Below are positions 3,789 through 48,220 of a stretch of 59,260 nt of DNA, one piece after another; positions within the stretch are counted from its first letter, which is position 1, and each line of letters starts with the position of its first letter. The notes beneath the pieces were generated by a model. The model made no database searches. It had not been told where the DNA came from and was given only the letters and a program-made list of their open reading frames with translations. The DNA comes from an uncultured virus (IMG/VR IMGVR_UViG_2061766007_004337) (lineage: Duplodnaviria; Heunggongvirae; Uroviricota; Caudoviricetes), in IMG/VR virus record IMGVR_UViG_2061766007_004337; one strand, 5' to 3'. A program made the translations under genes and the position numbers.

Positions 3789-3806
3789 AGGAATATAACC
3801 GGGCAT

Positions 3807-3840
3807 ACTCTTCGCGTATTATTGCGAAGAGTTCTTTTTT
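3807..3840 (+). terminator. Intrinsic terminator
   Basis: ACTCTTCGC/GCGAAGAGT stem followed by a T tract. Confidence 0.75.
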
Positions 3841-3991
3841 GCATATTTATTCGGGAAATACGTCAGTGGTGACGTGGATAAGCCTCCGCTCTTATGGAAA
3901 TATGGTAGGGCCGTTATGGCCTTATCACGCTACAGAGGGGAGGTTTTTCCGTGAACAGTAATGCAAATACATGCCGTCGGGAGGTGAAGGA

Positions 3992-8145: not shown

Positions 8146-8163
8146 GACGCAAGGAGGTTGCAA

Positions 8164-29700: not shown

Positions 29701-29912
29701 TTTTCCTTTGTCGCGCCGATGGACTGCTGCAGGAGTTTGTGCTTCTGCGAAAGAAGCTCGGTGTTGGAGGGGTCCAGCTTCAGCAGCTTCGTGACATCCT
29801 TCAGCGCGGTCTGTGTCTGTTTGATCGTGGTGTTGACGGACCTGAGAGCTTTCTCAAGACCTGTGGTATCGCCGCCGATCTCAACAGTGATGCCCTTGAT
29901 CCTGCCTGCCAT
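26760..29912 (-). CDS. Tape measure protein (TP901 family)
   Basis: MAGRIKGITVEIGGD, TKFSASEAAEAM, Trp-periodic repeats, AGGEAGAEAILPL. Confidence 0.96.
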   Translation of the reverse strand: MAGRIKGITVEIGGDTTGLEKALRSVNTTIKQTQTALKDVTKLLKLDPSNTELLSQKHKLLQQSIGATKEKLESLKQAQAQAKEQLENGTLGQDKYDALQREIIETEQELRRLQEEALNTNQVLERMDVVGTKMQQTGDAIAGVGQKMMPVTLGIVGLGTAAVKTASDFDEAMSKVAAVSGAAGDDLQALRDKAREMGATTKFSASEAAEAMNYMAMAGWKTGDMLDGIEGIMALAAASGEDLATTSDIVTDALTAFGLTAADSGHFADILAAASSNANTNVAMMGETFKYAAPIAGALGYSAEDVAEAIGLMANAGIKSTQAGTALRTMMTKLQGNLELSGAAFGDVTIATANADGSMRELGDILGDLRVYFGQMTESEAAAAAEALVGKNAMSGFLAVMNAAPEDIDKLNSAIANCDGTAQQMADTMQDNLAGQLTILKSQLQELAISFGEVLMPMIRNVVSKIQAFVDKLNSMSDAQRQSIVRIAAIVAAIGPFLIILGKLISTTGSAMKGFVSLAKGFGKLKIAVSSGTGLLGKLGAALGGISAPVLAVVAVIAVLVAAFVHLWKTNDSFREAILGTWKKIKTTVSNFVEGIRERLSALGISFEDITSAIKKIWDGFCKILAPVFEGAFKAISVALETVLGVITGILDVFIGIFTGNWSQAWNGVKEVFSSVWNGIEGWISTALETIRGVVDVFLGWFGTSWSAVWTSVSTFFTNVWNGITSFFSSVWETIKNVVQTGVMLIGSILEAAWDIITLPFRFIWENCRETVEAVWEAIKSAVSSAIDAVSQTISAVMTAIHNVISTIWNTISTKVSAALEAIKSVVTTVFNAIKAFVSPLWNGIKTAISTVVDGIKSKVSTAFNAVKSTVTSIFNGIKSTATSVWNGIKAAITTPIEAAKDKVKSMIDAIKGFFSGLNIQLPHIKLPHFRVTGTLSISPPSVPHLSIDWYKEGGIMAKPTVFGMNGSALMAGGEAGAEAILPLAGFYRQLEAMLDSKLNLGALERYLKVIADNSGKGIYLDDGTLVGRLLPAIDSGLGQNQKLNARLAL

Positions 29913-32436: not shown

Positions 32437-33651
32437 TCAGGTGCCCGAAGACGCGGTGCCCTTCAGCTTGAGGACCTTGATCGCCTCGGGCAGGATCAGC
32501 TTGCCGTCAACGCGCTGATTGCCGATGAAGCCGACCTGGCCGGTGGCGGCGTAGAGCTCGTTGAGGCGCTTGAAGGTGCGGCCGGTACGGTCGGCGATCC
32601 AGTAGTAGGAGAAATCGCCGAACGCGATGCCCTTCGCCCCGGCAGCGATCGTGGGCATAAAGGGAGAGGTGATGACCTCGCAGCCGAGGATCTTGTTGGG
32701 CGTACCGGCAACAAGAGAGGGCTCCCACAGATACTGCCCGGTGCTGTCCTTCAGCTTGCGGAGGGCGCTGACAGTGGTATCGTTCATGATCCACTTGGCC
32801 TTCTTGCGGTAGGGAACGCGGAGAGAGTAGTAGAGGTCGATCACCTCATCGGCGGTGATGGCGGTGCCGGACGCGGTAGTCACGCCGATCTCAGCGCCAC
32901 CGGTCTCGGCGAGGATACCGGTGGGCTTGCCGGTCCCGTCGCCGATGAAGAAAGCCTCTTCCTCCTTGGTGCCGATGCGACGACCGAACTCACGGGTGAT
33001 GTAGTTCTCGAGCGGGAAGGCGGAGTCGTTGAGCAGCTCCTCAGACACCTTGATCAGAGTCCCGAGCTTATAGGCGCCAAGGGAGATCTGGCCGAAGGCG
33101 TCATCGCTCTCGCCGTAGGTTCCTTCCTCATCGATCCAGGCAGCGGTGCCCTTGGAGGCGACGACCGGGATCTTGCGGTCGCCGCTGTTGGAGTGGATGA
33201 CCGTGGCGATGCGGCGGAAGAAGTTCTCTTCCTCCAGGGCCTCGATCAGGGTGTGCTCGAATTCGTCGGGCACCAGGTAGCCGCCCTCGGTCTCGGTGCC
33301 CACCTGCAGAGCGTTGATGACGGCAGAACTGGGGAACTTGGAGCGCATGACGTTCCAGAAGTTTGCCTTGTACTCGTCGGAGGCGCGGCCGGTTTTCATG
33401 TCGGCCTTGGCGCCGTCCGGCTTGCTGGTGAGCGGAGCGGCAGTGGGCTTGTTCAGCTCACGCTCAATGGCGTCAGCACGCTCCTGGCGGTCGATCTCCT
33501 TGCCGAGATTGACGATATCCTGCTCCATACGCTCATAGGCCTCGGTATCCTCCGCAGTGAGGATGCCGTTTTCGTTGCGGTGAGAATCCAGGAAGCTCTT
33601 GGCCTCTTCCCAGATGCGGGCGCGCTTCACACGAAGTTCGTTAGTGTTCAT
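32437..33651 (-). CDS. Major capsid protein (HK97 fold)
   Basis: Delta-domain coiled coil, GGYLVP, SEELLND, GDGTGKPTGI, FGDFSYY. Confidence 0.97.
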   Translation of the reverse strand: MNTNELRVKRARIWEEAKSFLDSHRNENGILTAEDTEAYERMEQDIVNLGKEIDRQERADAIERELNKPTAAPLTSKPDGAKADMKTGRASDEYKANFWNVMRSKFPSSAVINALQVGTETEGGYLVPDEFEHTLIEALEEENFFRRIATVIHSNSGDRKIPVVASKGTAAWIDEEGTYGESDDAFGQISLGAYKLGTLIKVSEELLNDSAFPLENYITREFGRRIGTKEEEAFFIGDGTGKPTGILAETGGAEIGVTTASGTAITADEVIDLYYSLRVPYRKKAKWIMNDTTVSALRKLKDSTGQYLWEPSLVAGTPNKILGCEVITSPFMPTIAAGAKGIAFGDFSYYWIADRTGRTFKRLNELYAATGQVGFIGNQRVDGKLILPEAIKVLKLKGTASSGT

Positions 33652-33668: not shown

Positions 33669-34406
33669 TTATGGTTTGATAAGATTCAGCCGCTCCATCA
33701 GTTCGTTAACGGAACGGCCCGGCTTTTCTTCCGGCGCAGTCGGTTCCTTTGGGGGCGCCGTTTTTGCGGTAAGCTTGTTCAAAAGAGCGGCTTCCGCCGC
33801 CTTGCCGGAAAACGCGTAAGCCGGTACCTCCGCCGTGAGCTTTTCATCGGTGAGGATGTCATCGGCAAAGCCAAGCTCAATGGCCTTCTTCGCGTTCATC
33901 CAGGTTTCGCTGTCCATCAGGTGCGACAGCTTCGCGCGGGTGAGACTGGTTTTGATTTCATAGGCGTTGATGATGCTTTCCTTGACTTCCGCCAGCATGT
34001 CAATTGCCTTCTGCATATCCTCATGATCGCCGAAGGCGGCTGTCATGGGATTGTGGATCATCATGAGAGCCGTAGGCGCCATAAGGACTCTGGTTCCGGC
34101 CATGGCAATGACCGATGCCGCGGAAGCCGCGATGCCGTCGATCTTTACCGTGACGTTTCCCTTGTAGTCCATGAGCATGGAATAGATCTGGCTTGCCGCG
34201 ACGCAGTCGCCGCCCGGGCTGTTGATCCAGACGACAACATCGCCGTCCCCGGCAAAAAGCTCATCGCGGAACATCTGCGGTGTGACGTCATCGTCAAACC
34301 AGCTTTCCTCCGCGATGGTTCCGTACAGCTCAAGGACTCTTTCCTCTGCGGGATCCGCGTCCGCCTGGTTAATCCAGTTCCAGAACTTCCTGTTCTGAGG
34401 TTTCAT
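33669..34406 (-). CDS. Clp-type prohead protease
   Basis: INSPGG, AASAASVIA, MMIHNP, ETWM. Confidence 0.93.
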   Translation of the reverse strand: MKPQNRKFWNWINQADADPAEERVLELYGTIAEESWFDDDVTPQMFRDELFAGDGDVVVWINSPGGDCVAASQIYSMLMDYKGNVTVKIDGIAASAASVIAMAGTRVLMAPTALMMIHNPMTAAFGDHEDMQKAIDMLAEVKESIINAYEIKTSLTRAKLSHLMDSETWMNAKKAIELGFADDILTDEKLTAEVPAYAFSGKAAEAALLNKLTAKTAPPKEPTAPEEKPGRSVNELMERLNLIKP

Positions 34407-35667
34407 CGGATTCGCTTGCCTCCTTGGTCGTAGAATTGTTATTTGCAAAAGCGCCCGCGCTGACGAGCGGGAGCATATTGCCGTTGATGAGATACAGGTC
34501 TCCGCCTTCCTCAGCCGGAATACGGTCAAGATTCTCCAGTTCTCGGATATCATTGGCGGACATCCAGCCGTTCTGCCTTGCTGTCGCATAGCCGGCCATC
34601 CTGCTCTGATAGTCTCCGCGGAGGAGACCCTCGACATTGAATTTCACAAAATACCGCGTTTTCTCCTCCGGCGTCAGCAGAGAGCGCTGAATGGACTGCT
34701 CCCAGCGCACGACCCAGGGATCAAGCGTGTATTTCACGAACTCAAGAGACTGCTGCTCAATATTTGAAAAGCTCGACTTTTCCAAATCCCCGACCATATG
34801 CGGCGGGACGCGGAAAATTCGAGCTATCTCATTGATCTGAAATTTTCTGGTTTCCAGGAACTGCGCCTGCTCCGGGGAGATGGAGATGGGCGTGTATTTC
34901 ATGCCCTCCTCCAGCACGGCGATTTTGCCGCTGTTCGCGCTCCCGCCGAACTGAGACTGCCACGCCTCCCGAACGCGGGCGGGGTCTTTTATCGTCCCCG
35001 GATGCTCCAGAACGCCTGAGGGAGCCGCACCGTTTGCAAAGAACTTAGCGCCGTACTCCTCAGTCGCTATTGCAAGCCCGATCGCGTTCTTGGCCATTGC
35101 GATCGGGCTGTAGCCGACAAGACCGTCAAAGCCCAGGCCGGGGATGTGCAGAACGTCCTGCGGCCGGAGAAGAACCCGACCGACGTCACCGGTCTTGGCT
35201 TCGTCCGTTGAGCGCGTATAGATGTAATAGAGCTGACCCTTGTCATCGCGGTCAACTTCCATCTTGTTGGGCATCAGCGGGTACAGGGCTATGACTTCGC
35301 CCTTGCCGTTCCGGATGACCTGCGCGTAGGCGTTGCCCCACAGGAGCAGATGCGTCATCAGCGTCTCCCGGAAAACGAACGAGCTCATCTCCGGGTTGGG
35401 CTCATCATGGAGCAGCAGATACAGCGGATGATCAATAGCCTTTTCTTTGCCGCCGCTCTCTGTGTAACGGTAAAGATGCACAGGGAGACCGGCAACAGCC
35501 TCCGCGAGAATGCGGACGCAGGAATAAACCGCCGTCATCTGCATGGAGGACCGCTCAGTTACAGATTTCCCGGCGGTGGTGCTGCCCATGAAAAAGCTGT
35601 AGCTGCTGCCCGCTGTGCTGTTTTGGGGCTTGTCCCGAGACCGGAACAGCCCGGAAAAAATGCTCAT
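34369..35667 (-). CDS. Portal protein (HK97 family)
   Basis: AVYSCV...PNPEM...GYSPI...EIARIFRVPP; ATG at 35667 after AAGGAGG. Confidence 0.96.
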   Translation of the reverse strand: MSIFSGLFRSRDKPQNSTAGSSYSFFMGSTTAGKSVTERSSMQMTAVYSCVRILAEAVAGLPVHLYRYTESGGKEKAIDHPLYLLLHDEPNPEMSSFVFRETLMTHLLLWGNAYAQVIRNGKGEVIALYPLMPNKMEVDRDDKGQLYYIYTRSTDEAKTGDVGRVLLRPQDVLHIPGLGFDGLVGYSPIAMAKNAIGLAIATEEYGAKFFANGAAPSGVLEHPGTIKDPARVREAWQSQFGGSANSGKIAVLEEGMKYTPISISPEQAQFLETRKFQINEIARIFRVPPHMVGDLEKSSFSNIEQQSLEFVKYTLDPWVVRWEQSIQRSLLTPEEKTRYFVKFNVEGLLRGDYQSRMAGYATARQNGWMSANDIRELENLDRIPAEEGGDLYLINGNMLPLVSAGAFANNNSTTKEASESDETSEQEVLELD

Positions 35668-35677
35668 TTCTGCCTCC

Positions 35678-35705
35678 TTGATTTTGCGGTTATATGTGGT
35701 ATACT
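35678..35705 (+). promoter_or_regulatory. Sigma-A promoter driving the riboswitch
   Basis: TTGATT-16 nt-TATACT with extended -10 TGTG. Confidence 0.7.
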
Positions 35706-35710
35706 GAGAG

Positions 35711-35796
35711 CACCTATAAAGAGTGCGCGAGAGACAAGCTCGTTGACCGCACGACAACCTGCCGAAAGGTAAGGTGCCAAAGCTTGAACGATGGGG
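35711..35796 (+). ncRNA. SAM-I-type (S-box; P4-less) riboswitch aptamer
   Basis: CCTAT-AAAGAG, P2 GTGCG/CGCAC with GAG..TGA kink-turn, loop CAAG pairing with CTTG, GACAACC..GGTGCC P3, AA, 3' GATGGG. Confidence 0.78.
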
Positions 35797-35811
35797 ATCA
35801 AAAGAATGCGT

Positions 35812-35842
35812 CAGCCCCATCGGACGATGGGGTTGTTTTTAT
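35812..35842 (+). terminator. Riboswitch expression-platform terminator
   Basis: CAGCCCCATCG-GA-CGATGGGGTTG then TTTTT; 5' arm is also complementary to the aptamer 3' strand CGATGGGG. Confidence 0.8.
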
Positions 35843-35882
35843 GCCTCTTTATGGGAATTATTCGTAAAGGGGTATTATTGTT

Positions 35883-36203
35883 ATGAGTCAATCGAATGAA
35901 GTCCTTATGTGGCATGTCGCTCTTCGTCCGGATGGGGGCCTGCAACCAATCGTCGCGGCATCAATCCCGTTTGATGTTGAATTGCTAAAGGCACTTCTTC
36001 AAACAGACCGTCCGGGCGCAAAAGTCGTTTCACTTGATGCGGATCATCATTACATGTTCGCATATGACAACAACCTGCAAAGGCCATACCCGAGTGTTAT
36101 GATCTTCAGATATGAGGAAACAGACGCTGGCAACATCGTCCGGGATTTGCGGCAAGAGGATATGCGCGCCGTCCAGTATGCCTATAACTGTCTGCTGAAT
36201 TAA
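35883..36203 (+). CDS. Riboswitch-controlled hypothetical protein (106 aa)
   Basis: AAAGGGG RBS; fills the gap between portal and terL on the opposite strand. Confidence 0.75.
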   Translation: MSQSNEVLMWHVALRPDGGLQPIVAASIPFDVELLKALLQTDRPGAKVVSLDADHHYMFAYDNNLQRPYPSVMIFRYEETDAGNIVRDLRQEDMRAVQYAYNCLLN

Positions 36204-37805
36204 TCACAGGAAGAGCAATCCCCGGTTATCGTAGACTGAGGCGCCGGTATCATTGCCACAGCGAATGGCGCGGTCGAGACCCATGATGGTTGCGACCGCG
36301 CCGTCTATTTTTTCTGTGGATTTTTCCTTGTCCGCCTTGATGTTGCCCGCCGGGTCTGTCCGAATGTAGATGTTGTCCATCATCCAGCGAAGGACCGGGT
36401 GTCCGCCGTGGGCGATCCTCTGCTCCAGCACGAGCTTCATCAGCTCTTTCGTCGGCGGGCTCATGTCCTTGAAGCCCTGGCCGAAGGGCACGACGGAAAA
36501 GCCCATGCCTTCAAGATCCTGCACCATCTGTGTCGCTCCCCAGCGGTCAAAGGCGATTTCACGGATATTGAAACGCTCACCGAGCCGCTCGATGAACTTT
36601 TCAATAAAGCCATAATGGATCACGTTGCCTTCCGTTGTTTGAAGGAAGCCCTGCCGCTCCCAGACGTCGTACGGAACATGGTCGCGCCGGACACGAAGCT
36701 CCATGTTTTCCTCCGGGATCCAGAAGTACGGAAGCACAGCATACTTATCGTCTTCATCCGCGGGTGGGAAGACCAGCACGAACGCCGTGATATCCGTGGT
36801 GGAGGAGAGGTCGAGCCCGCCATAGCACACCCGGCCCTCCAGCTCGTCCTCATCGACCGGGAAGGCGCACTGGTCCCATTTCTCCATCGGCATCCAGCGC
36901 ACTGACTGCTTGACCCACTGATTCAGCCTGAGCTGCCGGAAGGCGTTCTCCTCGGCGGGATTCTGCCTGGCGGATTCGCACGCCGCCTTGACCTTGTCGA
37001 TGCCGACCGTAATGCCGAGGGACGGATTGGCCTTTTTCCAGACCTTCGGGTCCGTCCAGTCATCGCTCTCGTCGGCACCGAAAATCACTGGGTAAAAGGT
37101 CGGATCGACCTTCCTGCCTTCCAGTATGTCCTTCGCCTTCTGGTGTGTTTCATAGCAGATCGACCTGGTGTCTGTTCCCGCTGTCGTGATCAGAAAATAC
37201 AACGGCTGCATACGGGCGTCGCCGGAGCCCTTTGTCATAACGTCAAAAAGCTTCCGGTTCGGCTGAGTATGCAGCTCGTCGAACACCACGCCATGGATGT
37301 TGAAGCCGTGCTTGGAGTAGGCTTCCGCCGACAGCACCTGGTAAAAGCTGTTTGTGGGTGTATATACAATGCGCTTTGTGGCCGTAAGGATCTTTACGCG
37401 CCGACTCAGAGCGGGAGACATACGGACCATATCCGCCGCGACGTCAAAGACAATGCCGGCCTGCTGACGGTCGGCGGCGCAGCCGTAGACCTCGGCACGC
37501 TCCTCACCGTCAGCGCAGGTGAGCAGAAGCGCGACGGCGGCGGCAAGCTCGGATTTGCCCATCTTCTTGGGGATCTCAACATATGCCGTGTTGAACTGGC
37601 GGTAACCGTTAGGCTTCAGAATACCGAAAATGTCCCGTATGATCTGCTCCTGCCAGTCGATCAGTTCAAAAGGCTTTCCCGCCCAGGTGCCCTTGGTGTG
37701 GCAGAGGTTTTGGATGAAAGCAACGGCATAGTCCGCCGCCTCTTTGTCGTAATATGAGGCTTTGGCCTTGAAGGCAGTGGGTTTGTATCTTTTCAGTTTT
37801 CGCAT
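36204..37805 (-). CDS. terL: Terminase large subunit
   Basis: PKKMGKS Walker A, VVFDELH, GGLDLSSTTD, EKIDGAVA. Confidence 0.97.
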   Translation of the reverse strand: MRKLKRYKPTAFKAKASYYDKEAADYAVAFIQNLCHTKGTWAGKPFELIDWQEQIIRDIFGILKPNGYRQFNTAYVEIPKKMGKSELAAAVALLLTCADGEERAEVYGCAADRQQAGIVFDVAADMVRMSPALSRRVKILTATKRIVYTPTNSFYQVLSAEAYSKHGFNIHGVVFDELHTQPNRKLFDVMTKGSGDARMQPLYFLITTAGTDTRSICYETHQKAKDILEGRKVDPTFYPVIFGADESDDWTDPKVWKKANPSLGITVGIDKVKAACESARQNPAEENAFRQLRLNQWVKQSVRWMPMEKWDQCAFPVDEDELEGRVCYGGLDLSSTTDITAFVLVFPPADEDDKYAVLPYFWIPEENMELRVRRDHVPYDVWERQGFLQTTEGNVIHYGFIEKFIERLGERFNIREIAFDRWGATQMVQDLEGMGFSVVPFGQGFKDMSPPTKELMKLVLEQRIAHGGHPVLRWMMDNIYIRTDPAGNIKADKEKSTEKIDGAVATIMGLDRAIRCGNDTGASVYDNRGLLFL

Positions 37806-37824
37806 TCGTTAGCCTCCGTGGCAC

Positions 37825-37847
37825 AAAAAAAGCCGCCTTAAGGCGAC
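37825..37847 (-). terminator. Terminator directly upstream of terL
   Basis: Minus strand GTCGCC-TTAA-GGCGGC followed by T7. Confidence 0.6.
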
Positions 37848-37902
37848 CGCGTAACGAGATACAGCCCAGACGGGCTGCACTCGGAGTATTCTTTTTTCGT
37901 TC

Positions 37903-38181
37903 TCAGGCGTTCATCGCCCAGAGGATCGCATGGCCTTCATCTTCAAATTCGACTTCGCTGACCGCCGCCAGCCCGATGGTGCTTTCGCAGTCGTGCTCGC
38001 CCTCGTCCAGGAATTCGTAGGCCGCGCCGAAGTAGTGGGGCTTGTTCAGCCCGTTGTAGTAATAGCCTGCCATGATCACCTTGTCTCCAAACCGCAGGGT
38101 CTTGCTCCAGCGGCATTCCAGGTTTTCCGGGGTGGTGGGGTTCGGCAGCCTGAGCTTCCGCATTCCTTCGCTGATCGTCAT
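37903..38181 (-). CDS. Hypothetical phage protein
   Basis: GAGGAGG-like RBS, compact 92-aa ORF. Confidence 0.65.
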   Translation of the reverse strand: MTISEGMRKLRLPNPTTPENLECRWSKTLRFGDKVIMAGYYYNGLNKPHYFGAAYEFLDEGEHDCESTIGLAAVSEVEFEDEGHAILWAMNA

Positions 38182-38196
38182 CCTCGTGGCCTCCTC

Positions 38197-38379
38197 TCAA
38201 ATGCTCTTGCCCCAGGCGAAGCCCTTCTCGGCGCGTTTTGCTCTGAGGAGGCTGAGGAGCCCGGTGAACTGTTCGTGGCTGAGGCGGTAGGCGCTGTAGG
38301 CCTGGCAAATGGCAATGTGCGCGCTCTTGAGGTCGTTCTCGGTCTTGATCCCGGCGATCTGCTTTTTGAATTCCTTCAT
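38197..38379 (-). CDS. Hypothetical protein
   Basis: GGAGG RBS downstream of a repeated promoter-like motif. Confidence 0.6.
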   Translation of the reverse strand: MKEFKKQIAGIKTENDLKSAHIAICQAYSAYRLSHEQFTGLLSLLRAKRAEKGFAWGKSI

Positions 38380-38559
38380 GGTGTTTTCCTCCCTGTTTGC
38401 GGGGCTCTGTGCCCCTTTGCATGTACATATATCACTCTGAACCGCCGGATTATCAAGTAATTTTCACGGAATATATGTACCAAAGAAAGCGGAAGAAAAC
38501 TGTGTATTATAGCGCATACGAGACAAAGGGCCTTCCGGCCCGATGTCTGCCGGTCACCC

Positions 38560-38757
38560 TCAGCCGAAGGTGACCAGACCGGTCTTGTGCCGGAGCGCGG
38601 TATCGGCGCTCTCGCACTTGGCGGTGTCCGCCAGCCACTTGCCGATGCCCGGCGCGTAAAGGATCGGGTCGCCGGTGACCGGGTGGAAATCCACCACAGT
38701 AGCGGTGACACCAAAGTTGGTGACCTGCTGGCCAAGGGTGAGGTTGGGGTTTGTCAT
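38560..38757 (-). CDS. Hypothetical protein
   Basis: AAGGAGG RBS. Confidence 0.6.
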   Translation of the reverse strand: MTNPNLTLGQQVTNFGVTATVVDFHPVTGDPILYAPGIGKWLADTAKCESADTALRHKTGLVTFG

Positions 38758-38798
38758 GGGGATGACCTCCTTGTGAAGTTGTGGGTAGCCCGGCCGGC

Positions 38799-39005
38799 TT
38801 AGAAGCCGACCGTGACCTTGCCGTCCTTCTGAAGGTTGACCGGCTCCCGGATCAAAGCCTCAACCATCTCCTTGCAGGCGATCATGGCGTCCAGCTTGCT
38901 TTTTACGACCCGGTCCTCGAACCCGTATCGCTTGAGCTCCTCCTGAAAATCGTCCATCTGGCTCTGCAGGTAGGCAATCAGGTTCTCTTCGGTGTAGGTT
39001 TTCAT
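38799..39005 (-). CDS. Hypothetical protein
   Basis: GGAGG RBS downstream of a repeated promoter-like motif. Confidence 0.62.
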   Translation of the reverse strand: MKTYTEENLIAYLQSQMDDFQEELKRYGFEDRVVKSKLDAMIACKEMVEALIREPVNLQKDGKVTVGF

Positions 39006-39131
39006 TTTGTTTCCCTCCGTAAAAGTGTCGTTTGACCTTCGGCATGTGTATTAATCACTCTGCGGCGGGAAAATAGCAAGATAAATCGCGGGAATAAATG
39101 TACCAAAGAGTACAGAGGAAAAGTGTGTATT

Positions 39132-39332
39132 TTATCGCATGCTACTGCCATGAATGATGGAGAGAATCTTCTCCTGCTCCTCCTTGCCGATGCCGATGCT
39201 GTCCAGGGCTTGCCGGGTGCCGCAGTCAGGACAGATCAGCGTCTCGTTGTCTTCACGGGAGAGCGCCGGCGGCTCGGCGTAGGTCTTTCCGCACAGCGGG
39301 CAAACCCTGAGTTCTCTGATTTCCGCTTTCAT
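39132..39332 (-). CDS. Small zinc-finger protein
   Basis: CPLCG...PALSR.DN.TLICPDCG. Confidence 0.75.
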   Translation of the reverse strand: MKAEIRELRVCPLCGKTYAEPPALSREDNETLICPDCGTRQALDSIGIGKEEQEKILSIIHGSSMR

Positions 39333-39793
39333 TCTCGCACCTCCATGCTGGCGTCGACAGCGTCCCAGAGCTTCTCCGCGTCAAAACCGAAGGAGCGGTA
39401 ACCGTCGAGACAGGTCTTCATGTAATACTGCGACGGGATCCCGAGCGGCCGGTCCTCATGCATGATATAAGCAAAAACCGGGCGGGTACGCACTTTCCCG
39501 CTGCGGATGCCGGTGATGGGCAGCGTCAGCTCCGCCTTGTAGTAAAAGCGGGGAAAGCCCTCGTAGCGATCCAGGGCGGTCTCATCCCGGGCGGACACCT
39601 CCCAGACAGCAACGGGAACGCTCTCACCCTCGTAAGGCTCAACGGTGAGGTAGGCCCCGGTCTGACTGCCTCTGAACAGAAGCCGGTGATCCGGCAGCTC
39701 GGAGGTCCCGATTATCCGCGCCGTCGGGCAGCGCATCCGCATCTGCGGAATGTTGAGGTTGCTGCCGTACGCAATATAGTATCTTTTCGCCAT
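39329..39793 (-). CDS. Gamma-glutamylcyclotransferase-family protein
   Basis: YIAYGSNL, LDRYEG.P.FY. Confidence 0.88.
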   Translation of the reverse strand: MAKRYYIAYGSNLNIPQMRMRCPTARIIGTSELPDHRLLFRGSQTGAYLTVEPYEGESVPVAVWEVSARDETALDRYEGFPRFYYKAELTLPITGIRSGKVRTRPVFAYIMHEDRPLGIPSQYYMKTCLDGYRSFGFDAEKLWDAVDASMEVRE

Positions 39794-39906
39794 GTGCTGA
39801 TCCTTCCTTTCCGGGGACATACCCCTTCTACCACCGAAAGCCCGCTGTTCAGCGGGTTCGGGGGCCTCTGGGCTGCGTCCTTCAAGCGGCGGCTCTNNNN
39901 NNNNNN

Positions 39907-40779
39907 GCCGGAAGGCTGTGTCTCCGTCAAGGTTGCGGGTCAGAAAATCCCGCGCCGTGGCGAACTCCTCGCCGATGAAGCCGAGCCGGAGGAGCCAGGT
40001 GCGCATCGCGTACTTGGGGTTCTCGTTCTGCTGAGGCTTGGGGCTGGCGGTCCGCACTTCCTTCGCCATCTCGCTGAGCGCGAGGCAAAGTTGAATGTAG
40101 CTCTTCAGCTGTCCGGCGTGGATGCCGTTCTGCCTGCCGCCNNNNNNNNNNNNNNNNNNNNNNNNNNNNNNNNNNNNNNNNNNNNNNNNNNNNNGTTGGC
40201 GTCGTTGCCGGTGTACCAGACGTCCGCGAGGGCGGCCATCGTCCGGGGCTTTCTGCGGTTCAGCGCCGCGAGGAAGGCGGGGTCGACCGTTCTGCAGTAG
40301 CGGTCCATGCGGCCGCGGTCGAGGCGAAGGGCGTCGGCCAGAAGGCTTTCGTGGCTTGCCATGATGTTGGCGAGGTTCCGAAGCGTCTGCGGCGTGTGGC
40401 CCTGGGCTCCGATGTGGATGTGAACTCCGCACCCGCGGGTGGCGTCGCTCTTCGCGCCCGCCTTGCGCAGCCGGCGGCAAAGCTCCTGCAGGAGTTCAAT
40501 GTCGCTGTAGCGGAGGATCGGGGTGACCATCTCGCACTTTTCGCTGTCCGGACCCTGGATGCTGACGTCCCGCTGGAATTTCCACTCGCGGCCCGCGCTG
40601 TCCCAGGCGCTCCAGGTGTAGTAGCCGTTGCGGTGGGCGGTGTCCTCGTATCTGCCGGTTCCGAAGAACTCGGCGGCGAGCTGGGCGGCCGCCTTGCGGG
40701 TGATGCTGTTCATCTCGACCTCGACGCCGATTGTCTGGCTCTTGAGGTTCTCGATCTGCTTTTCGGTCTTGTTCGTCAT
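39907..40779 (-). CDS. Amidoligase (COOH-NH2 ligase type 2), interrupted by assembly gaps
   Basis: IGVEVEM, DVSI, EMVTPIL, CGVHIHIG; the missing middle appears at 43515-43625. Confidence 0.85.
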
Positions 40780-40919
40780 TGCTGTATCCTCCGTTTTCCG
40801 GGGCTGTCCGCTCCCTTTTGGTAGTGTATTAATCACTCTAAACGGAGGATATAGCAAGACAATTCGGAGCCATATACTGCACAAAGATACAGCAGAAAAG
40901 TTGTGTATTTATGCGGCTT

Positions 40920-41138
40920 TCAGAGCTTTCTGACAAGATCCTCACCATAGACAACATTGAGCCTGGAGCCCGTGTCCCAGCGCATCAGGAGACTGCCGGT
41001 ATCGTCAACGCCGAGCACTGTGCCGAGCGTACCTTCGGGCGGCGCCTGGACGTCTTCCATGCGGACAAGCTCCACGCGAGTCCCCTTGGGATACTCACGC
41101 CGGATCCGCTCCACGATCTCCTTACTCGGAAACATCAT
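40920..41138 (-). CDS. DUF4314-like protein
   Basis: YPKGTRVEL..M.D...GTLGTV.GVDD.G...WD.GS.L. Confidence 0.8.
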   Translation of the reverse strand: MMFPSKEIVERIRREYPKGTRVELVRMEDVQAPPEGTLGTVLGVDDTGSLLMRWDTGSRLNVVYGEDLVRKL

Positions 41139-41838
41139 CTTCACGGCCTCCCTTCGCACCGCTTTTGAAGGCAGCGGAGCCTGTCAGGTTTCGGAGCAGA
41201 ATCTTCCGCTCCGTCTTGTAATCGGCCCCGATAAATCCGAGGCGGAGGAGGAAGCAGCGGAAGGCGTACTTCTCGTTGTCGACCGGCTTTTCGTGAGCGT
41301 TTATACGTTTCTGCTCACAGGTCATGGCGCACAGTGCGGAAATAAAATGCGTGTAGGCTTTGATCTCGTCGCTGTCGAGGTTACGGCCGCCAAACCAGGG
41401 GAAGGAAACAAACTCCTCGCCGATGTCAAAGCGGAGGTCCTCGGCTCCGAGCGCCTTCCGGATCAGCGCGCCCTTTGCCTCGAGCAGATTGGTGAGGTTC
41501 GCGGTGTTGACCTTGGCGTGCGGCATGATAACCGTGAGCGCCATTCCGTCAGCCTCCCGCTCCTCATCGGCAGGGTTTTCTTCGGCTTCCGCCGCGGGGA
41601 GCTCATATCGGAAGCCCTCGTCGTAAAGGTGCTCCAGCAGCCGCTCGATTACCTCATCATCGGCTTTGCCGTCGAATGTGAGGTCTCCGTCGCGGCCGAC
41701 GGTGAACCGCTCCACCTCATAGGAAAAGCTGGGCGCGCCGTTGTATTTGACGTCGCTGCCGAGCCAGGCGGCAAGCGTCTGGACCAGGCGCTTGCGCTCT
41801 TTGCCGGGGACTTCGAATTTGATCGTCATGGGGAACAT
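41122..41838 (-). CDS. Conserved clostridial prophage protein
   Basis: NEKYAFRCFLLRLGFIG..YK..RKILL. Confidence 0.75.
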   Translation of the reverse strand: MFPMTIKFEVPGKERKRLVQTLAAWLGSDVKYNGAPSFSYEVERFTVGRDGDLTFDGKADDEVIERLLEHLYDEGFRYELPAAEAEENPADEEREADGMALTVIMPHAKVNTANLTNLLEAKGALIRKALGAEDLRFDIGEEFVSFPWFGGRNLDSDEIKAYTHFISALCAMTCEQKRINAHEKPVDNEKYAFRCFLLRLGFIGADYKTERKILLRNLTGSAAFKSGAKGGREDDVSE

Positions 41839-41921
41839 ACCTCCTTCAATTTGGTATGTACATATACGCTCTGAATGCCTGAAATAGCAACATGATTCGG
41901 AGCCGTATACTGCACAAACAT

Positions 41922-43899
41922 TCAGGAGGAAAACTGGTCATAGTACGCTATGCCTGCCAGCACGAACCATACGCACGGAAGCGCCACGCCGTTGCCCCAG
42001 AGGCGGTAGGCGGCGCTGTCCAAGTACGGAGCCTGCAGCCATTTGACGATCTGGCTGCGGGTCTTCGGCTTCTTAGCCCCAGAGATGACTTCGCGGTAGG
42101 TCTCGAACACATCGGTCCAGAAGGCAATGTCCTCTTCAGTCGGCTCCGCGGTTTCAAGCCCGTCGCACCACCAGTCCGGGAAGCCTTGGAGCCTCGCGCA
42201 TTCGGTGGGGGTAAGGCGTCGCACGATGTAATAGGGCTCGGCGCTCACGACGGGAGGCTCCTTGTACTCGGAAGCCACCAGCGTGTCCACGGCGGGCTCA
42301 TCGGTGAACTTCGTCACGTGGGAGTTCTTCGAGGCGTGGAATACCGGGGCGGCGACACCCTGCTGGTCAGCCGTGTTCAGCGTGAACGCAACATCCTCAC
42401 CGACGCCGCTGCCCTGGGGACCGTTTTTCTCGTTCCGGCCGATCATATTGCCCTGCAAAGAATAGGCTTTTTCCACCACACAGACCCCGCCCTGGTTGCA
42501 GCCGGGGTGCCCGCCGCTCTGATCGAGGGTGCGGGAAGTCTCAGCCACATAAATGCCGGAGTGAGGATTGTCTGAGAGCATAGAATGGCTCTGGTTGGAG
42601 CAGATTCCGAAAACGGTAGGCGCGAACACAGTCTGATCGTTGTTTGTGGCGAGAGTGGCGGATCTCTCTTCCTGCCACAAGGCGCCTTTGCCGCCGCCTT
42701 CCTTGCCGCAGCGGATCTTCAGCGTGTATGCCAGGGGGCCGGCGGGAGTCATGACGAGCGGGACGTTGTTGCCGCCGGTGCCCATGCGCTGCGTCAGCGT
42801 CTGCACCAGGTTGTTCCCGTCGATGCGGATGCGGCAGTCTACGGGGTGGTGTTCCAGGGCAATCGCCGCGGGAACGACCCCGGCACGGAGCGTGGGAGCG
42901 GTCTCCTCCTCGTAGCCGATGGAACGGCTCTTCGCGGAATGCTCCGTGCAGAAGCCCGCCGCGATCACCGGAGGATGGCCGTGGGTCTCGGCGCGGAGTG
43001 TGCCGGAAACATCCTCCGACACATCCATACGGTCGCCGCCCTGGTCGTTCAGGCAGACGCTGCCTGCCGCTCCAACGCCGCTCTCAGGATCACGGGCAGC
43101 TCTTTGCCACGCTTCGAAGCCCTCCGGAGAATACCCAGACAGGCCTTCGGAGTTAAACAGTATGTCTCCGGCACGTTCTCCTGCAAAATCTGCGACAAGA
43201 AAGATCCTTGCTCTGCGCTGGGGTACACCCCAGAATTGAGCGTCGAGAAGGCGGTAAGCCACGCTCCATCCGTCTCCCAGATACACGTCGGCGTAAGGCC
43301 ATCCGTTTTTACCAGGTGCAGGCACCTCGGCGGACGGCTCTTTGACGCCGATGACCGCCTCAAGGACTGCCTTGAAGTCGGCCCCTCCGTTTGAACTGAA
43401 GGCGCCGGGGACGTTCTCCCAGACGCAGTATCTCGGATATTCTCCATTGGTTTTTTCCCTCATTTCTCTGATGATGCGGATCGCCTGATGGAACAGGCCG
43501 GAGCNNNNNNNNNNCTCCGGGGCGTCGAACTGGAAAAGGCGGAACTCAACGGTGCCCTTGGTGAAGGTGGCGTGGAGGTTGAGCATGTGGTAGCGGCTGT
43601 CGTTGTAATGCTGGTTTCTGCCGTANNNNNNNNNNGTCAAGTCCGGCTCTGCGTCCCGCGACCGACATATCCTGACACGGACTGCCGAAGGTGATGATAT
43701 CCACGGGCGGCAGGTCGGCGCCGGAGAGCGCGGACACATCCCCGTAATGAAGCATTTCAGGCAGCCGCTTCGTTGTCACGCGCACGGCGAAGGGCTCCAC
43801 CTCGGAAGCCCAGACAGGCTCGATCCCGGAGAGGATGCCTGCCAAAGGAAAACCCCCGGAGCCGTCAAACAGGCTGCCGAGGGTGAGACGTTTATTCAT
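41922..43899 (-). CDS. DNA (cytosine-5) methyltransferase (foreign fragment scaffolded at 43505-43635)
   Basis: LFDGSGG, GSPCQ, WENV, PQRRARIF, RRLTPTECARLQGFPD, GNGV. Confidence 0.88.
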
Positions 43900-45406
43900 G
43901 TTCTACCTCTTTCACAAGGTCTGAGTAGTTGATCCGCTGCCCGTTCCGTTCTACAAACACCTGTTCTGCGTTTCCAAAGTCTTCGACATATCTGCGGAGG
44001 ATGACGGAGGCATACTTGGGATCGAGTTCCATCATGCGGCAGATCCGCCCGGTCTGTTCACAGGCCATCATGGTCGAGCCGGAGCCGCCGAAAGTGTCAA
44101 TGACAACGCTGTTCTCCTGCGAGGAGTTCTTTATGGGATAGGCCAGCAGGTCGAGCGGCTTGCTCGTCGGATGGTTTTCGTTCCGCTTGGGCTTGGCGTA
44201 GTTCCAGATCGTGGTCTGCTTGCGGTCGGAATACCAGGGGTGCTTCCCGTTTTGAAGGAAGCCGTACAGGATAGGCTCGTGCTNNNNNNNNNNCTGCTTG
44301 CGGTCGGAGTACCATGGATGCTTCCCGTTCTGAAGGAAGCCGTACAGGATCGGCTCGTGCTGCCACTGGTAATCCGAGCGGCCGAGCACCAGGGAGTCCT
44401 TCACCCAGATACAGCATCCGGCGAGGTGGAAGCCTGCGTCGATAAACGCCCGGCGGAAGTTCAGCCCTTCGGTGTCGGCGTGGAATACGTAGGCCGCGCC
44501 GCCTTTCTCGAGCACATCCGCCATGTTCTTGAACGCGGAGAGCAGGAAGGTGTAGAACTCTTCGTTCNNNNNNNNNNGAGAGTCCTTCACCCAGATACAG
44601 CACCCGGCAAGATGGAAGCCGGCGTCGGAAAATGCCCTGCGGAAGTTCAGCCCTTCGGTATCGGCGTGGAATACATAGGCCGCGCCGCCCTTTTCGAGCA
44701 CGCCCGCCATGTTCTTGAACGCGGAGAGCAGGAAGGTGTAGAACTCTTCGTTCTTGATGCTGTCGTTCTGAATCGTCAGGCCGCTGGAGCTTTTGAAAGA
44801 TACACCGTAGGGCGGGTCCGTCACGATCAGGTTCGCGCGGGTGCCGTCCATGAGCTTCTGTACATCTTCCGCTTTGGTGGCGTCGCCGCACATGAGCCTG
44901 TGCCGGCCGACCGTCCACACGTCTCCGGGCTCCACAAACGTAGCCTTCTCCAGCGCGGCGGAGAGGTCATAGCCGTCATCTTTAACGTCGGCGTTTTTAT
45001 CCTCGAAAAGGTCAGCCAGCTCATTCTCGTCAAACCCGGTAAGGAGCGGGTCAAAATCCTCCGCCCGCAGCGACTCGATCTCCACTCGCAGGAGCTCCTC
45101 GTCCCAGCCGGCATCCATGGCCATGCGGTTGTCCGCAATGATGTACGCTTTTTTCTGGACCTCGGTCAGATGATCCGCAAACACGCAGGGAACTTCAGTC
45201 ATGCCTTCCTCTTTGGCGGCAAGCAAACGACCGTGACCGGCGATCACGCCATAGTCACGGTCGATTATGATTGGATTGATAAACCCGAACTCCCGGAGCG
45301 AAGACCTGAGCTTCAAAATCTGTTCCGGGGAGTGGGTGCGCGCGTTGTTGACATAGGGAACAAGCTTCCCGATAGGGACAAGCTGCATTTCAGTCGTGGT
45401 AGTCAC
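43892..45406 (-). CDS. ParB-like N-terminus + N6/N4 DNA methyltransferase (internal duplications at gaps)
   Basis: NNARTH, IAGHGR, TDPPY, HPTSKP, DTFGGSG; GTG overlaps the MetK stop. Confidence 0.88.
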   Translation of the reverse strand: MTTTTEMQLVPIGKLVPYVNNARTHSPEQILKLRSSLREFGFINPIIIDRDYGVIAGHGRLLAAKEEGMTEVPCVFADHLTEVQKKAYIIADNRMAMDAGWDEELLRVEIESLRAEDFDPLLTGFDENELADLFEDKNADVKDDGYDLSAALEKATFVEPGDVWTVGRHRLMCGDATKAEDVQKLMDGTRANLIVTDPPYGVSFKSSSGLTIQNDSIKNEEFYTFLLSAFKNMAGVLEKGGAAYVFHADTEGLNFRRAFSDAGFHLAGCCIWVKDSXXXXNEEFYTFLLSAFKNMADVLEKGGAAYVFHADTEGLNFRRAFIDAGFHLAGCCIWVKDSLVLGRSDYQWQHEPILYGFLQNGKHPWYSDRKQXXXXHEPILYGFLQNGKHPWYSDRKQTTIWNYAKPKRNENHPTSKPLDLLAYPIKNSSQENSVVIDTFGGSGSTMMACEQTGRICRMMELDPKYASVILRRYVEDFGNAEQVFVERNGQRINYSDLVKEVEHE

Positions 45407-46191
45407 GGTCGGATCAGCCCCCATTCGGCAAACTTCTCAAACCCGCCGAGCGACTCGATATACTCCCGGGCGATTTTTACGATCTCCGAGTACGGACGCC
45501 CGTCAATGCTGTCGTCGCCGATAGCGCAGCAGAGCTCCACAGGCCTGCCGGTCTTCTGTGCCTTGAGCCAGGCATAGATGTTGACGCTGACGTCGGCCTT
45601 GCTCAGGTCCTTGCCGTGCAGTCCGCCGCCGGTCACGCTGTCGCCCATATCGGAGCCGAGCTTACGGTTCGTGGCCCCGGTATCCACATCGGTGCCGCCG
45701 GTCCAGTCGCCGAGCGGATTGATCTCCGCGTCTGGGAAAAGACGGTCCAGCACACGGCTGGAGGCATTGCTTTGGCAGATAATGAGCCGGTCATCATCCA
45801 GAATGTACTTTCCGTCATATGGAAAAAGCTCATAGATGAAGCCAGCGGCGTCGGTCAGTTCATCCTGCTCGGCGGTGACGGGGACGCCCTTGAAAATACC
45901 GTTATCTCCACAGCGGATCTTGTCCTGCTGATTCTTGGCGAGGTGGCTGTCCTGGGGCACACGGGTATAGTGTACATTCAGCTTTCCGGCGATGCGGTTT
46001 ACCGCTCTCAGGATAAAGCTGGCCGGGATCCGCACGGAAGACTCGGCTATGATGTAGCAGTTGCCATGGCCGATCAGCACCTCAACCGCGATCTTCGGAT
46101 CATCCTCGAAGGCATACGCCAGGTCTACGATCGCGCCGGCGATACGGTCGGCTATTTTGTCCGGGTGGGACGGGTTCACTTTTTCGTACAT
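45403..46191 (-). CDS. metK: Compact S-adenosylmethionine synthetase-like protein
   Basis: EKVNPSHPDKIAD, CGDNG, DGK, INPLG.WTGG..DTGATNRK, GGGLHGKDLSKAD. Confidence 0.85.
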   Translation of the reverse strand: MYEKVNPSHPDKIADRIAGAIVDLAYAFEDDPKIAVEVLIGHGNCYIIAESSVRIPASFILRAVNRIAGKLNVHYTRVPQDSHLAKNQQDKIRCGDNGIFKGVPVTAEQDELTDAAGFIYELFPYDGKYILDDDRLIICQSNASSRVLDRLFPDAEINPLGDWTGGTDVDTGATNRKLGSDMGDSVTGGGLHGKDLSKADVSVNIYAWLKAQKTGRPVELCCAIGDDSIDGRPYSEIVKIAREYIESLGGFEKFAEWGLIRP

Positions 46192-46195
46192 TCTT

Positions 46196-46747
46196 TCATC
46201 CTTTCCTGGCGCGGAGAAGCCGCTCCATAACATCGTCCTGGGGAGTGGGGCCGCTCCATTCAACAGAGCAGTTCTCCTTCACTATCTGGTAGATCTGGTA
46301 CCAGAGCTGATTACACTGTTTGGCGTAGTCCCGGGAGATGGCCACATACGGCGACGTCATCGCGCCTCCGGTCGTGGGATGCTTCGCCAGGAAGCCGAAC
46401 TCGCTGATGGCGGTTTCGCACTGGATCCATCGGGCGCCCGCCATGGCGTACTGCTCGATAAGCAGAGGCCCGACGTACTGGTCGCACTTCCTCGCACGGA
46501 GCCAGTTCCATACTTCCTCGTACAGTTCTTCGGCGCAGAAGTCCCTGCCGTCTTTCTGCCTGGCCTTGAGATACTCCTTCGCCGGCGGCATGTCCGCACC
46601 GAGGAGGCCCTCAGCCGCATCGCCGAAGTCTATGACCGTCAGCTCGTGCCCTCCGGGGTTGCCGGAAACAACGCGCTCGGTCAGCGCCTTCTTTTTTGGC
46701 CCTGTGCCGGGCCTCGCGCCGCCGCGCATCGTGCCGTCCTTGGCCAT
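46196..46747 (-). CDS. terS: Terminase small subunit (P27-like)
   Basis: RGGARPGTG, HPTTG...SPYV, DDVMERLL. Confidence 0.85.
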   Translation of the reverse strand: MAKDGTMRGGARPGTGPKKKALTERVVSGNPGGHELTVIDFGDAAEGLLGADMPPAKEYLKARQKDGRDFCAEELYEEVWNWLRARKCDQYVGPLLIEQYAMAGARWIQCETAISEFGFLAKHPTTGGAMTSPYVAISRDYAKQCNQLWYQIYQIVKENCSVEWSGPTPQDDVMERLLRARKG

Positions 46748-47908: not shown

Positions 47909-47941
47909 CTCCTCAGTCAACAGAGAAAGGGTGCAGTGCAT

Positions 47942-48220
47942 TTGATCAAATCATTTTCAAATAAAGAAACAGCATCCCTTTTCAACACCGGTCATTCCAG
48001 GATTTTCAGCAATATAGAGCGTATTGCCCTGCGCAAGCTGGACATGATAAATGCCGCGGTCAATGTAGAAACGCTCAAAGTCCCGCCCGGAAACAGGCTG
48101 GAAGCTCTTAAAGGGAACCGCCAGGGTCAATACAGCATAAGAATAAATGACCAGTGGCGCATATGCTTTAAGTGGGAAGGCCGCGATGCATATGATGTTG
48201 AAATCGTCGATTATCACTGA
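47942..48220 (+). CDS. higB: HigB (RelE/ParE-family) toxin
   Basis: PPGNRLEALKG.R.GQYSIRINDQWRICF...VEIVDYH. Confidence 0.93.
   Translation: MIKSFSNKETASLFNTGHSRIFSNIERIALRKLDMINAAVNVETLKVPPGNRLEALKGNRQGQYSIRINDQWRICFKWEGRDAYDVEIVDYH

Follow-up and report, generated by a model that had tools for sequence, protein, structure and literature searches.

A P4-less SAM-I riboswitch unit and a MetK-methyltransferase cassette, probably two independent accessory modules of a temperate phage

When the sensor, the synthetase and the consumers of one metabolite are encoded within 10.5 kb of a phage genome, do they form one circuit? The question is raised by the uncultured virus record IMGVR_UViG_2061766007_004337 (IMG/VR; Caudoviricetes), a 59,260-nt stretch of DNA that was analysed whole and is called the window here. 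Between its genes for the portal protein and the small terminase subunit (terS) lie an S-adenosylmethionine (SAM) riboswitch followed by an open reading frame (ORF) of 106 aa (P0001), the gene for the large terminase subunit (terL), and a cassette in which a compact homolog of the SAM synthetase MetK (mini-MetK) precedes two DNA methyltransferases. The original prediction held that the phage supplies SAM for its own methylation and monitors the pool through the riboswitch. Our analysis favours another answer, namely that the locus is probably made up of two accessory modules, independent of each other, in a temperate siphovirus-type prophage of a gut bacterium, of which the riboswitch-gated gene, with its predicted DUF3846-like product, is the part worth following.

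The named parts were all present. Pfam and Rfam identified terS, the MetK-like gene, the N6/N4 and C5 methyltransferases and terL, with a SAM-I unit between terL and the portal gene, and the ends of the MetK, N6/N4 methyltransferase and C5 methyltransferase genes overlapped as claimed, by 22 nt and 8 nt. The test that had been set beforehand was the co-occurrence of metK and the riboswitch moron in related phages, and the two were found to be distributed independently.

We compared 160 loci with relatives of the window's TerL (L013-L172, 81-91% identity). Two collections each gave more than 600 matches, of which we took the best 80. The riboswitch model was positive in 0 of the 160, and no P0001 homolog was seen in them by tblastn. 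The mini-MetK, in contrast, was frequent: of the 96 relatives whose terS-terL interval is complete, 43 have one.

To these we added 29 loci with a member of the P0001 family, making 30 sources with the window, and a covariance model (R1) built from seven aptamers. R1 located a riboswitch immediately ahead of the ORF in 23 of the 30 family-bearing sources, with scores of 73-109 bits. The P4-less architecture was conserved in all 23 units and was kept across P0001 divergence down to 33% identity. Four loci (L002, L003, L185, L187) had intact upstream sequence and no riboswitch by R1; as for the other misses, L009 and L189 were cut by a contig end and L011 is a gene remnant. The sources include some redundancy: L012 is the same as the window, by riboswitch score L004 corresponds to L176-L178 and L005 to L006, L182 and L183, and the L008 and L184 proteins were identical in the tree. 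The riboswitch and the ORF travel as one self-contained cassette.

Chromosomal units were found at loci without phage genes, MetK or methyltransferases (L005-L010, L174, L183, L184, L188). They came from assemblies of Mogibacterium and other Clostridia and from metagenome contigs, and their neighbours were ordinary or island-type genes, including those for SUKH immunity proteins, ADP-ribosylglycohydrolase, amidohydrolases, sugar genes and a serine recombinase. A call on MetK context was possible for three phage types, L179 and L012 being too short. The unit and the mini-MetK occurred together in the window phage and in the L004 type (L004, L176-L178), whereas phage L001 carried the portal gene, the unit, terL, a phrog_2443 protein, a methyltransferase and terS, and no mini-MetK. 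In the P0001 protein tree, phage-borne units fell into two separate clades, window plus L001 (support 100/99) and L004 plus L179 (99/96), with chromosomal clades between them and weak support at the deep nodes. These distributions speak against the idea that the riboswitch monitors the SAM pool as part of one circuit. Our literature searches, which covered titles and abstracts, found no paper on a phage-borne SAM riboswitch unit.

L004 is a contig binned as a Phocaeicola metagenome-assembled genome, in which terL is split and the terS-MetK-methyltransferase block inverted. Since L176-L178 represent the same phage type in colinear, normal order, the arrangement in L004 probably arose by misassembly, and it is doubtful that the contig belongs in that bin.

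The unit itself is laid out as follows.

35678-35705, plus strand: sigma-70-like promoter of the riboswitch unit (TTGATT, 16-nt spacer, TG-TATACT; pattern scan)
35711-35797, plus strand: SAM-I (S-box) aptamer with P4 almost wholly deleted (RF00162, 50.9 bits against a cutoff of 44.4, E 9e-9)
35812-35840, plus strand: intrinsic terminator (35812-35835 followed by a T-run in the pattern scan)
35841-35875, plus strand: hairpin sequestering the Shine-Dalgarno sequence, covering AAAGGGG at 35866-35872
35883-36203, plus strand: 106-aa ORF (P0001), a member of a small conserved family with a predicted DUF3846-like fold

SAM-I (RF00162) was the single family that reached the gathering threshold in an Rfam scan of the window, and 8 of 12 related loci also exceeded the RF00162 threshold. 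The promoter matches the consensus at 9 of 12 positions, has a TG-extended -10 element and overlaps the region of the portal ribosome-binding site on the opposite strand. The 5' arm of the terminator (CCCCAUCG) has an alternative partner in the 3' strand of P1, and in the minimum-free-energy fold of the leader the P1 3' strand GAUGGGG was paired with the terminator arm CCCCAUC as an antiterminator. The P1 3' strand thus competes with the terminator, as expected of a SAM-I expression platform, and the leader as folded is the classical antiterminator arrangement of a predicted OFF switch.

Covariation was assessed over 24 pairs in P1, P2/P2b and P3 of 6 distinct sequences only; 95.8% of cells were paired, compared to 31-40% in slid controls, and 5 pairs showed compensatory changes on both sides. 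P4 is where the aptamer departs from the family: 17 consensus positions are deleted in the Rfam alignment, a single G-C/G-U pair is left in all units, and the four-way junction with a P4 helix, by which SAM-I membership was also judged, is lacking in the window. Between the terminator and the start codon, a hairpin over the Shine-Dalgarno sequence formed in each of the 8 units tested, with folding energies between -11.7 and -16.4 kcal/mol and z between -2.2 and -5.9; the sequence of its arms varies between lineages. The ORF ends at 36203, one base ahead of the end of the converging terL gene at 36204, and the pattern scan found no terminator on the plus strand between the ORF end and 36300.

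We also compared the interval 35300-36700 with four RNA-library runs, using Logan contigs, which carry no strand. Zero-mismatch contigs covered 35881-36031 (run X15) and 36038-36188 and 36176-36326 (run X16), with DNA carry-over being possible, and the matches over the aptamer were mostly other S-box leaders with 4-8 differences. One 1549-nt contig (X15, record 5) matched the aptamer with 1 difference in 72 nt (35716-35787) and had unlike flanks, so that an aptamer nearly identical to that of the window must also occur in a different setting.

P0001 had 16 close homologs among 5.8 billion cluster representatives, and a hidden Markov model search of 1.84 billion proteins retrieved 65 representatives, of which 50 had E values up to 1e-10. 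A 19-member alignment of the family showed 48% mean column identity and 12 invariant columns. P0001 matched no family in Pfam, NCBIfam or PHROGs, and tblastn gave zero matches both in 50,697 phage records and in 72,556 plasmid records. The AlphaFold model made from the 19-sequence alignment had a predicted local distance difference test score (pLDDT) of 90 and a predicted template-modelling score (pTM) of 0.82. In a Foldseek search of BFVD, its best matches were DUF3846 proteins (E 6e-5, probability 1.0, template-modelling (TM) scores 0.61/0.51); matches to DUF3846 proteins overall had E values of 6e-5 to 1e-2 and TM scores of 0.5-0.66, with predicted structures on both sides. ESM Atlas structure rows pointed to the same families (DUF3846/DUF5880, TM 0.57-0.64). 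The P0001 model appears to resemble DUF3846, while the Pfam model of DUF3846 (PF12957) matched 0 of the 19 family members at E up to 10. Among solved structures nothing convincing was found by Foldseek (best E 0.024, GAF domains, TM 0.38), and the highest Z that VIA-align reached over 48,161 chains was 4.7.

Distant members were examined for fusions and tandem copies (P0079, P0081, P0083, P0084, P0087, P0064 and P0035). Four weaker members were fused to Sel1 repeats, one to a WapI-like immunity domain (25.9 bits, just below the cutoff of 27) and one to a zinc ribbon; another had a C-terminal SHOCT domain and a hydrophobic N-terminal part with membrane-like segments, and some distant members were tandem copies. 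A search for longer fused forms in the index of 5.8 billion proteins found one protein of 254 aa. P0025, P0044 and P0052 have a common unannotated N-terminal domain. The P0001 family is small, uncharacterised and worth testing.

The junction between terL and the portal gene, where the window carries the unit, holds other cargo in the TerL relatives. The gap exceeded 150 bp in 66 of 150 relatives and reached a maximum of 2236 bp. We scanned 74 of the 108 gap ORFs, the 34 omitted ones being mostly shorter than ~70 aa or from loci repeating another gap pattern. The scanned ORFs encoded ParE with RelB or Phd (6 loci), Fic (4) and AAA_14-DUF4143 (2) proteins, and also HepT with a nucleotidyltransferase (MNT), SymE, Gp49 with a helix-turn-helix protein, Abi_2, DUF4365, DUF3800, DUF2971, a group II intron reverse transcriptase and a phosphoadenosine phosphosulfate (PAPS) reductase. 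Given these varied inserts, the terL-portal junction serves as a general site for cargo, where toxin-antitoxin and abortive-infection genes abound, and the riboswitch unit is one rare occupant of this hot spot in a widespread Bacillota phage lineage.

The other module fills the interval between terS and terL, listed here in the direction in which it is read.

46196-46747, minus strand: terminase small subunit, terS (Pfam Terminase_4; phrog_83)
45403-46191, minus strand: mini-MetK, a compact 262-aa methionine adenosyltransferase (MAT) homolog (S-AdoMet_synt_N; phrog_1569)
43892-45424, minus strand: ParB_N plus N6/N4 DNA methyltransferase (Pfam; phrog_498, E 2e-205)
41922-43899, minus strand: C5 cytosine DNA methyltransferase, its variable region long (each half matched by Pfam DNA_methylase)
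41122-41838, minus strand: 238-aa phrog_2443-type protein (PHROGs; no Pfam match)
40105-40884, minus strand: Amidoligase_2 enzyme, gap-broken (Pfam E 3e-40; phrog_2443)
39329-39790, minus strand: gamma-glutamyl cyclotransferase-like protein, GGACT/AIG2 (Pfam; phrog_2520, E 8e-47)
38197-39332, minus strand: four small ORFs of 60, 65, 68 and 66 aa, the last of zinc-ribbon type (ORF list; repeat-separated)
37903-38181, minus strand: Nmad4-domain protein (Pfam PF18756, E 2e-20; phrog_6231)
36204-37805, minus strand: terminase large subunit, terL (Pfam TerL_ATPase and TerL_nuclease)

In the 96 relatives with a complete interval, the ParB-methyltransferase was present in 95 and the phrog_2443 protein in 83, and these were joined in many combinations by the C5 methyltransferase (35), the amidoligase (33), GGACT (28) and Nmad4 (16) in addition to the mini-MetK. 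The interval is a mosaic DNA-modification cassette with the ParB-N6/N4 methyltransferase as its near-constant part. In the window, the mini-MetK starts 4 nt past terS and its stop codon (45403-45405) lies 22 nt inside the ParB-methyltransferase ORF, which opens at 45424; the stop codon of the latter (43892-43894) in turn overlaps the C5 methyltransferase ATG (43899) by 8 nt. The relatives are similar, with 40 of the 43 mini-MetK genes starting 4-28 nt past terS and 40 of the 43 abutting or overlapping the ParB-methyltransferase start. The MetK-methyltransferase pairing is real, common in the lineage and already described in kind. Of the claim that phage MetK supplies SAM for the phage's own methylation, the pairing is supported, by synteny, and the supply is likewise predicted from it.

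The mini-MetK retains the MAT motifs H-P-D-K, G-D-x-G, D-x-G-x-T-x-R-K and G-G-G-x-x-x-G-K-D-x-x-K-x-D-x-S in alignments to solved MATs, and these positions were mostly invariant or nearly so across 24 phage mini-MetK homologs. It scored 42.1 bits with the NCBIfam metK equivalog model TIGR01034, compared to a cutoff of 309.4, and falls short of the full length of ~380 aa. Its profile positions 3-107 and 124-225 align to MAT positions 10-124 and 186-290, the middle being shortened and the C-terminal part largely missing. The AlphaFold model had a pLDDT of 71, and the top PDB matches listed by Foldseek were MATs (E 8e-10, query TM scores 0.50-0.62, root-mean-square deviation 7-11 A). Among distinct homologs in our loci, 43 of 46 were 260-263 aa long, with 64-75% identity; L115 and L124 have a 345-aa MetK in place of the compact form. 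Mini-MetK genes are widespread in gut and streptococcal phages, 25 GenBank phage records matched, and the listed rows read "hypothetical protein"; phrog_1569 carries the label "unknown function" in PHROGs.

The ParB-methyltransferase scored 107.6 bits for N6_N4_Mtase (cutoff 26.7) and 30.2 bits for ParB_N (cutoff 26.3). Its length of 510 aa, compared to 410-424 aa in relatives, is inflated because two contig ends are duplicated across gaps (44216-44361 and 44394-44753, 92-93% identity). The C5 methyltransferase gene is interrupted solely by two 10-N scaffold gaps; its two halves scored 55.7 and 59.6 bits for DNA_methylase (cutoff 22) and contain readable FxGxG-type, S-P-C-Q (PCQ), ENV, QRR and GNG motifs. 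The 238-aa phrog_2443 protein and the amidoligase tail have a C-terminal motif in common, K-Y-A-x-R-x-x-L-L-R-L-G-F-I-G; we considered them as paralogs or duplicated strain variants and rejected this, the BLASTP similarity not being significant (E 2.4). An intergenic repeat of ~85 nt, with 61-72% identity between copies, lies ahead of several minus-strand cassette genes (39039-39121, 40817-40899, 41850-41932 and, by eye, ~38420-38510) and may be a late promoter or leader. PADLOC found nothing among the cassette proteins except a weak zinc-ribbon match (E 0.0012). The amidoligase/phrog_2443/GGACT trio is also annotated in prophages of Clostridium clostridioforme (PMC11318856).

All 30 N runs of the window lie between 39897 and its end at 59260, making the right-hand third a gapped scaffold, and the riboswitch unit and terL fall within the ungapped part. 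A 111-nt piece of the amidoligase C-terminus (43515-43625, minus strand) is misplaced inside the C5 methyltransferase gene with 10-N gaps on both sides and is a scaffolding artefact, and the amidoligase gene is split by a 53-N gap at 40142-40194. Together with the duplicated contig ends, these artefacts suggest that the scaffolder joined strain variants. From 39.9 to 47.2 kb the gene content is reliable, and the fine order and lengths are less so.

We consider it likely that the locus combines two independent accessory modules rather than one circuit. The terS-terL module on the late-gene strand would be expressed with the late genes. In about half of the relatives its ParB-methyltransferase is preceded, tightly abutted, by a MetK of ~260 aa, and the C5 methyltransferase, the amidoligase/phrog_2443/GGACT trio and Nmad4 are optional parts. 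Judging from the conserved synteny, the compact MetK probably increases the SAM available to the neighbouring methyltransferases; it would top up the pool during lytic growth, so that phage DNA is methylated before packaging. The terL-portal module on the opposite strand is a self-contained moron with its own sigma-70-like promoter and P4-less SAM-I aptamer. From the leader sequence we infer that bound SAM would let P1 form and the downstream terminator halt transcription, and that at scarce SAM the P1 3' strand would pair with the 5' arm of the terminator, allowing transcription into the 106-aa ORF. The hairpin over the ribosome-binding site of the ORF would act as an additional lock that limits translation. 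The unit would then be expressed, from a lysogen or a chromosome, only at low cellular SAM. A phage MetK raising SAM in lysis would also hold the unit off, which because of the distribution data we regard as a side effect, not a selected circuit.

What P0001 might do in such a setting can be put in a sharper form, which we consider unlikely as it stands: the unit would be a SAM-depletion alarm, in which a tightly silenced effector or immunity-type protein is made, by lysogens and chromosomes, only when cellular SAM collapses, for example when an infecting phage destroys SAM to disarm restriction or bacteriophage exclusion (BREX), or under a SAM-targeting toxin. Such a protein would have the predicted DUF3846-like fold, with Sel1 repeats or a WapI-like immunity domain attached in distant relatives, and in phages the unit occupies a slot where relatives keep toxin-antitoxin and abortive-infection genes. 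The double silencing, by terminator and ribosome-binding-site hairpin, the immunity-type fusions and the slot are together compatible with a stress or conflict role for P0001. If true, the alarm would be a case of a metabolite riboswitch serving as an infection sensor.

The single circuit as originally proposed, in which phage MetK feeds the methyltransferases and the riboswitch reads the pool, keeping its gene OFF in lytic growth and ON otherwise as a self/non-self logic, has the proximity of all parts within 10.5 kb on its side. The window phage and the L004 type carry both the unit and the mini-MetK, and by riboswitch logic a rise in SAM would terminate the unit transcript. Yet the unit was missing from all 160 TerL relatives compared, including those with a MetK, it occurs in chromosomes without any phage gene and in L001 without MetK, and its phage-borne copies fall into two P0001 clades, albeit with weak deep nodes. 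The unit is also antisense to the late operon, whose transcription in lysis would in itself disturb it, and we regard the single circuit as improbable. A classical S-box regulon, with P0001 helping methionine or SAM metabolism as a regulator, carrier or MetK partner and acting as a lysogenic-conversion gene for a SAM-starved host, is possible but doubtful. Genes behind SAM-I riboswitches mostly serve methionine, cysteine or SAM metabolism and transport, the riboswitch is retained in 23 of the 30 sources, and a PALP-family enzyme gene lies upstream in L175 (at the far end of a short contig) and L187 (~1.8 kb away, at a locus with no riboswitch). On the other hand, P0001 matches no metabolic family in the three databases searched, its neighbours vary by locus with no recurrent methionine genes, four family members have no riboswitch, and the fusion partners in distant members are Sel1 repeats or a WapI-like immunity domain, not enzymes.

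Two further readings concern the RNA. The riboswitch might mainly gate an antisense RNA, low-SAM read-through into terL damping packaging when methylation cannot finish. S-box-controlled antisense RNA is known in Clostridium acetobutylicum, the ORF and terL converge and abut with no plus-strand terminator to 36300, and in L001 and L004 the 3' end of the ORF overlaps the terL ORF by a few nt (the L004 terL being a C-terminal fragment). The ORF is, however, conserved as a protein, as its column identity and invariant columns show, and the riboswitch is retained in chromosomal loci without terL, so that this reading seems very unlikely. We think it nearly as improbable that the aptamer is a degenerate relic that lost SAM sensing with P4 and left the leader a constitutive attenuator. 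The deletion of 17 P4 consensus positions down to a single pair and a score just 6.5 bits over the family threshold would fit such decay, but the P4-less form recurs in all 23 units at 73-109 bits by R1 with compensatory changes in P1, P2 and P3, and its conservation across protein divergence to 33% identity is the pattern expected from selection on a working aptamer.

Several points weigh against the two-module reading that we prefer. P4 is missing in all units, so that SAM binding by the aptamer remains a prediction, and the exact RNA-library matches to the ORF, from two runs, cannot give strand or exclude DNA. PADLOC gave no match for 6 members of the P0001 family. All unit-bearing phages with enough flank also carry the methyltransferase cassette, the mini-MetK accompanies the unit in 2 of the 3 judgeable phage types (window and L004 type), and a link between unit and MetK may be restricted to phage-borne units. 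The 160 TerL relatives are, moreover, a best-match subset and not an exhaustive sample.

The two modules lie in the late region of a temperate siphovirus-type prophage, which fills the window and is read on the minus strand by Pfam. The Pfam late-gene order is endolysin, tail genes, capsid, ClpP-type protease, portal, terL, the 9-kb accessory interval, terS, HNH endonuclease and replication genes.

15334-16857, minus strand: endolysin (Pfam)
26760-29912, minus strand: tape-measure protein, one of the tail genes (Pfam)
32437-33651, minus strand: capsid (Pfam)
34369-35820, minus strand: portal protein ORF, 34369-35667 from the likely true start (Pfam Phage_portal, E 4e-133)

The longer portal ORF opens at 35820, and the likely true ATG is at 35667, with AAGGAGG upstream. 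The interval 35300-36700 was near-complete (0.94-0.97 of sampled words) in 14 DNA runs from pig and bovine gut metagenomes of at least 12 studies, two of the runs being marked as possible sources, and the phage is therefore common enough for study. Elsewhere, the window encodes three large serine recombinases in tandem (608-6184, plus strand), a Fic-MarR protein (8158-10698, plus strand), a GNAT acetyltransferase in a low-GC patch amid the tail genes (25522-26046, minus strand), a HigB-like toxin on the strand opposite to the late genes (47936-48220, plus strand) and a phage sigma-like protein (DUF1492 and Sigma70_r4; 55703-56248).

Against this background the original claim loses most of its interest, the MetK-methyltransferase block being ordinary for the lineage and the circuit failing. 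The P4-less SAM-I aptamer with its ribosome-binding-site lock is a near-constant partner of the P0001 family and offers a testable cue, low SAM, and the toxin-antitoxin and abortive-infection cargo at the junction hints that the SAM level could serve as a stress or infection signal. The compact MetK of 260 aa, if it proves active, would represent a minimal form of methionine adenosyltransferase.

The closest counterparts of the cassette are in streptococcal prophages. Streptococcus pyogenes Phi1207.3 has a MetK (orf29) near ParB-N6/N4 and C5 methyltransferases (orf32 and orf33), and the authors propose methyl-donor supply (PMC4260502); a prophage-encoded MetK is also reported for S. agalactiae 12/111phiA (PMC8223999). 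As in the window, the Phi1207.3 SAM synthetase gene is near both methyltransferases and close to the terminase genes, but it encodes a full three-domain MetK of 353 aa, unlike the compact 262-aa form here (PMC4260502). The 5-carboxymethylcytosine hypermodification system CmoA/CmoX/CmoY likewise brings together in phage a C5-methyltransferase homolog, a ParB-domain protein and an ATP-dependent amide-forming ligase (PMC12783734). The ligase in the window is a glutamine-synthetase-like Amidoligase_2, in contrast to the asparagine-synthetase homolog of that system (PMC12783734). We rejected a Cmo reading of the cassette, as no CmoA-like match was found among the cassette ORFs and the methyltransferase motif is S-P-C-Q, not the S-P-P-C of CmoX (PMC12783734).

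In its predicted fold P0001 may be similar to DUF3846 (PF12957) and DUF5880, small proteins that occur in phages, plasmids and giant viruses, and it is unlike DUF3846 in that none of the 19 family members belongs to it by sequence. T3-type phages manipulate the host SAM pool in their contest with restriction systems by means of a lyase that destroys SAM. The window phage is predicted to act in the opposite direction by making SAM, and it has no lyase homolog; PDB entry 8bb1, which appeared in the Foldseek listing for the mini-MetK, is presumably a T3-type SAM lyase.

The riboswitch shares with SAM-I (S-box) riboswitches of the Bacillota transcription-termination type the conserved core, the covarying P1-P3 and the terminator/antiterminator OFF platform. 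It differs from typical SAM-I in that P4 is essentially absent, an extra constitutive-looking hairpin covers the ribosome-binding site, and the controlled gene encodes an uncharacterised small protein, not a methionine or SAM gene, with some copies in a prophage packaging module. Accessory cargo of this kind is familiar from the morons of lambda and HK97 and from the defence hot spots of P2-like phages and P4-like satellites. Like the morons of temperate phages, the unit is a self-contained promoter-gene unit on the strand opposite to the late genes, at a variable junction that often holds toxin-antitoxin or abortive-infection genes; unlike them, its cargo is gated by a metabolite riboswitch. 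It consists of a single gene and matches no known defence family in PADLOC.

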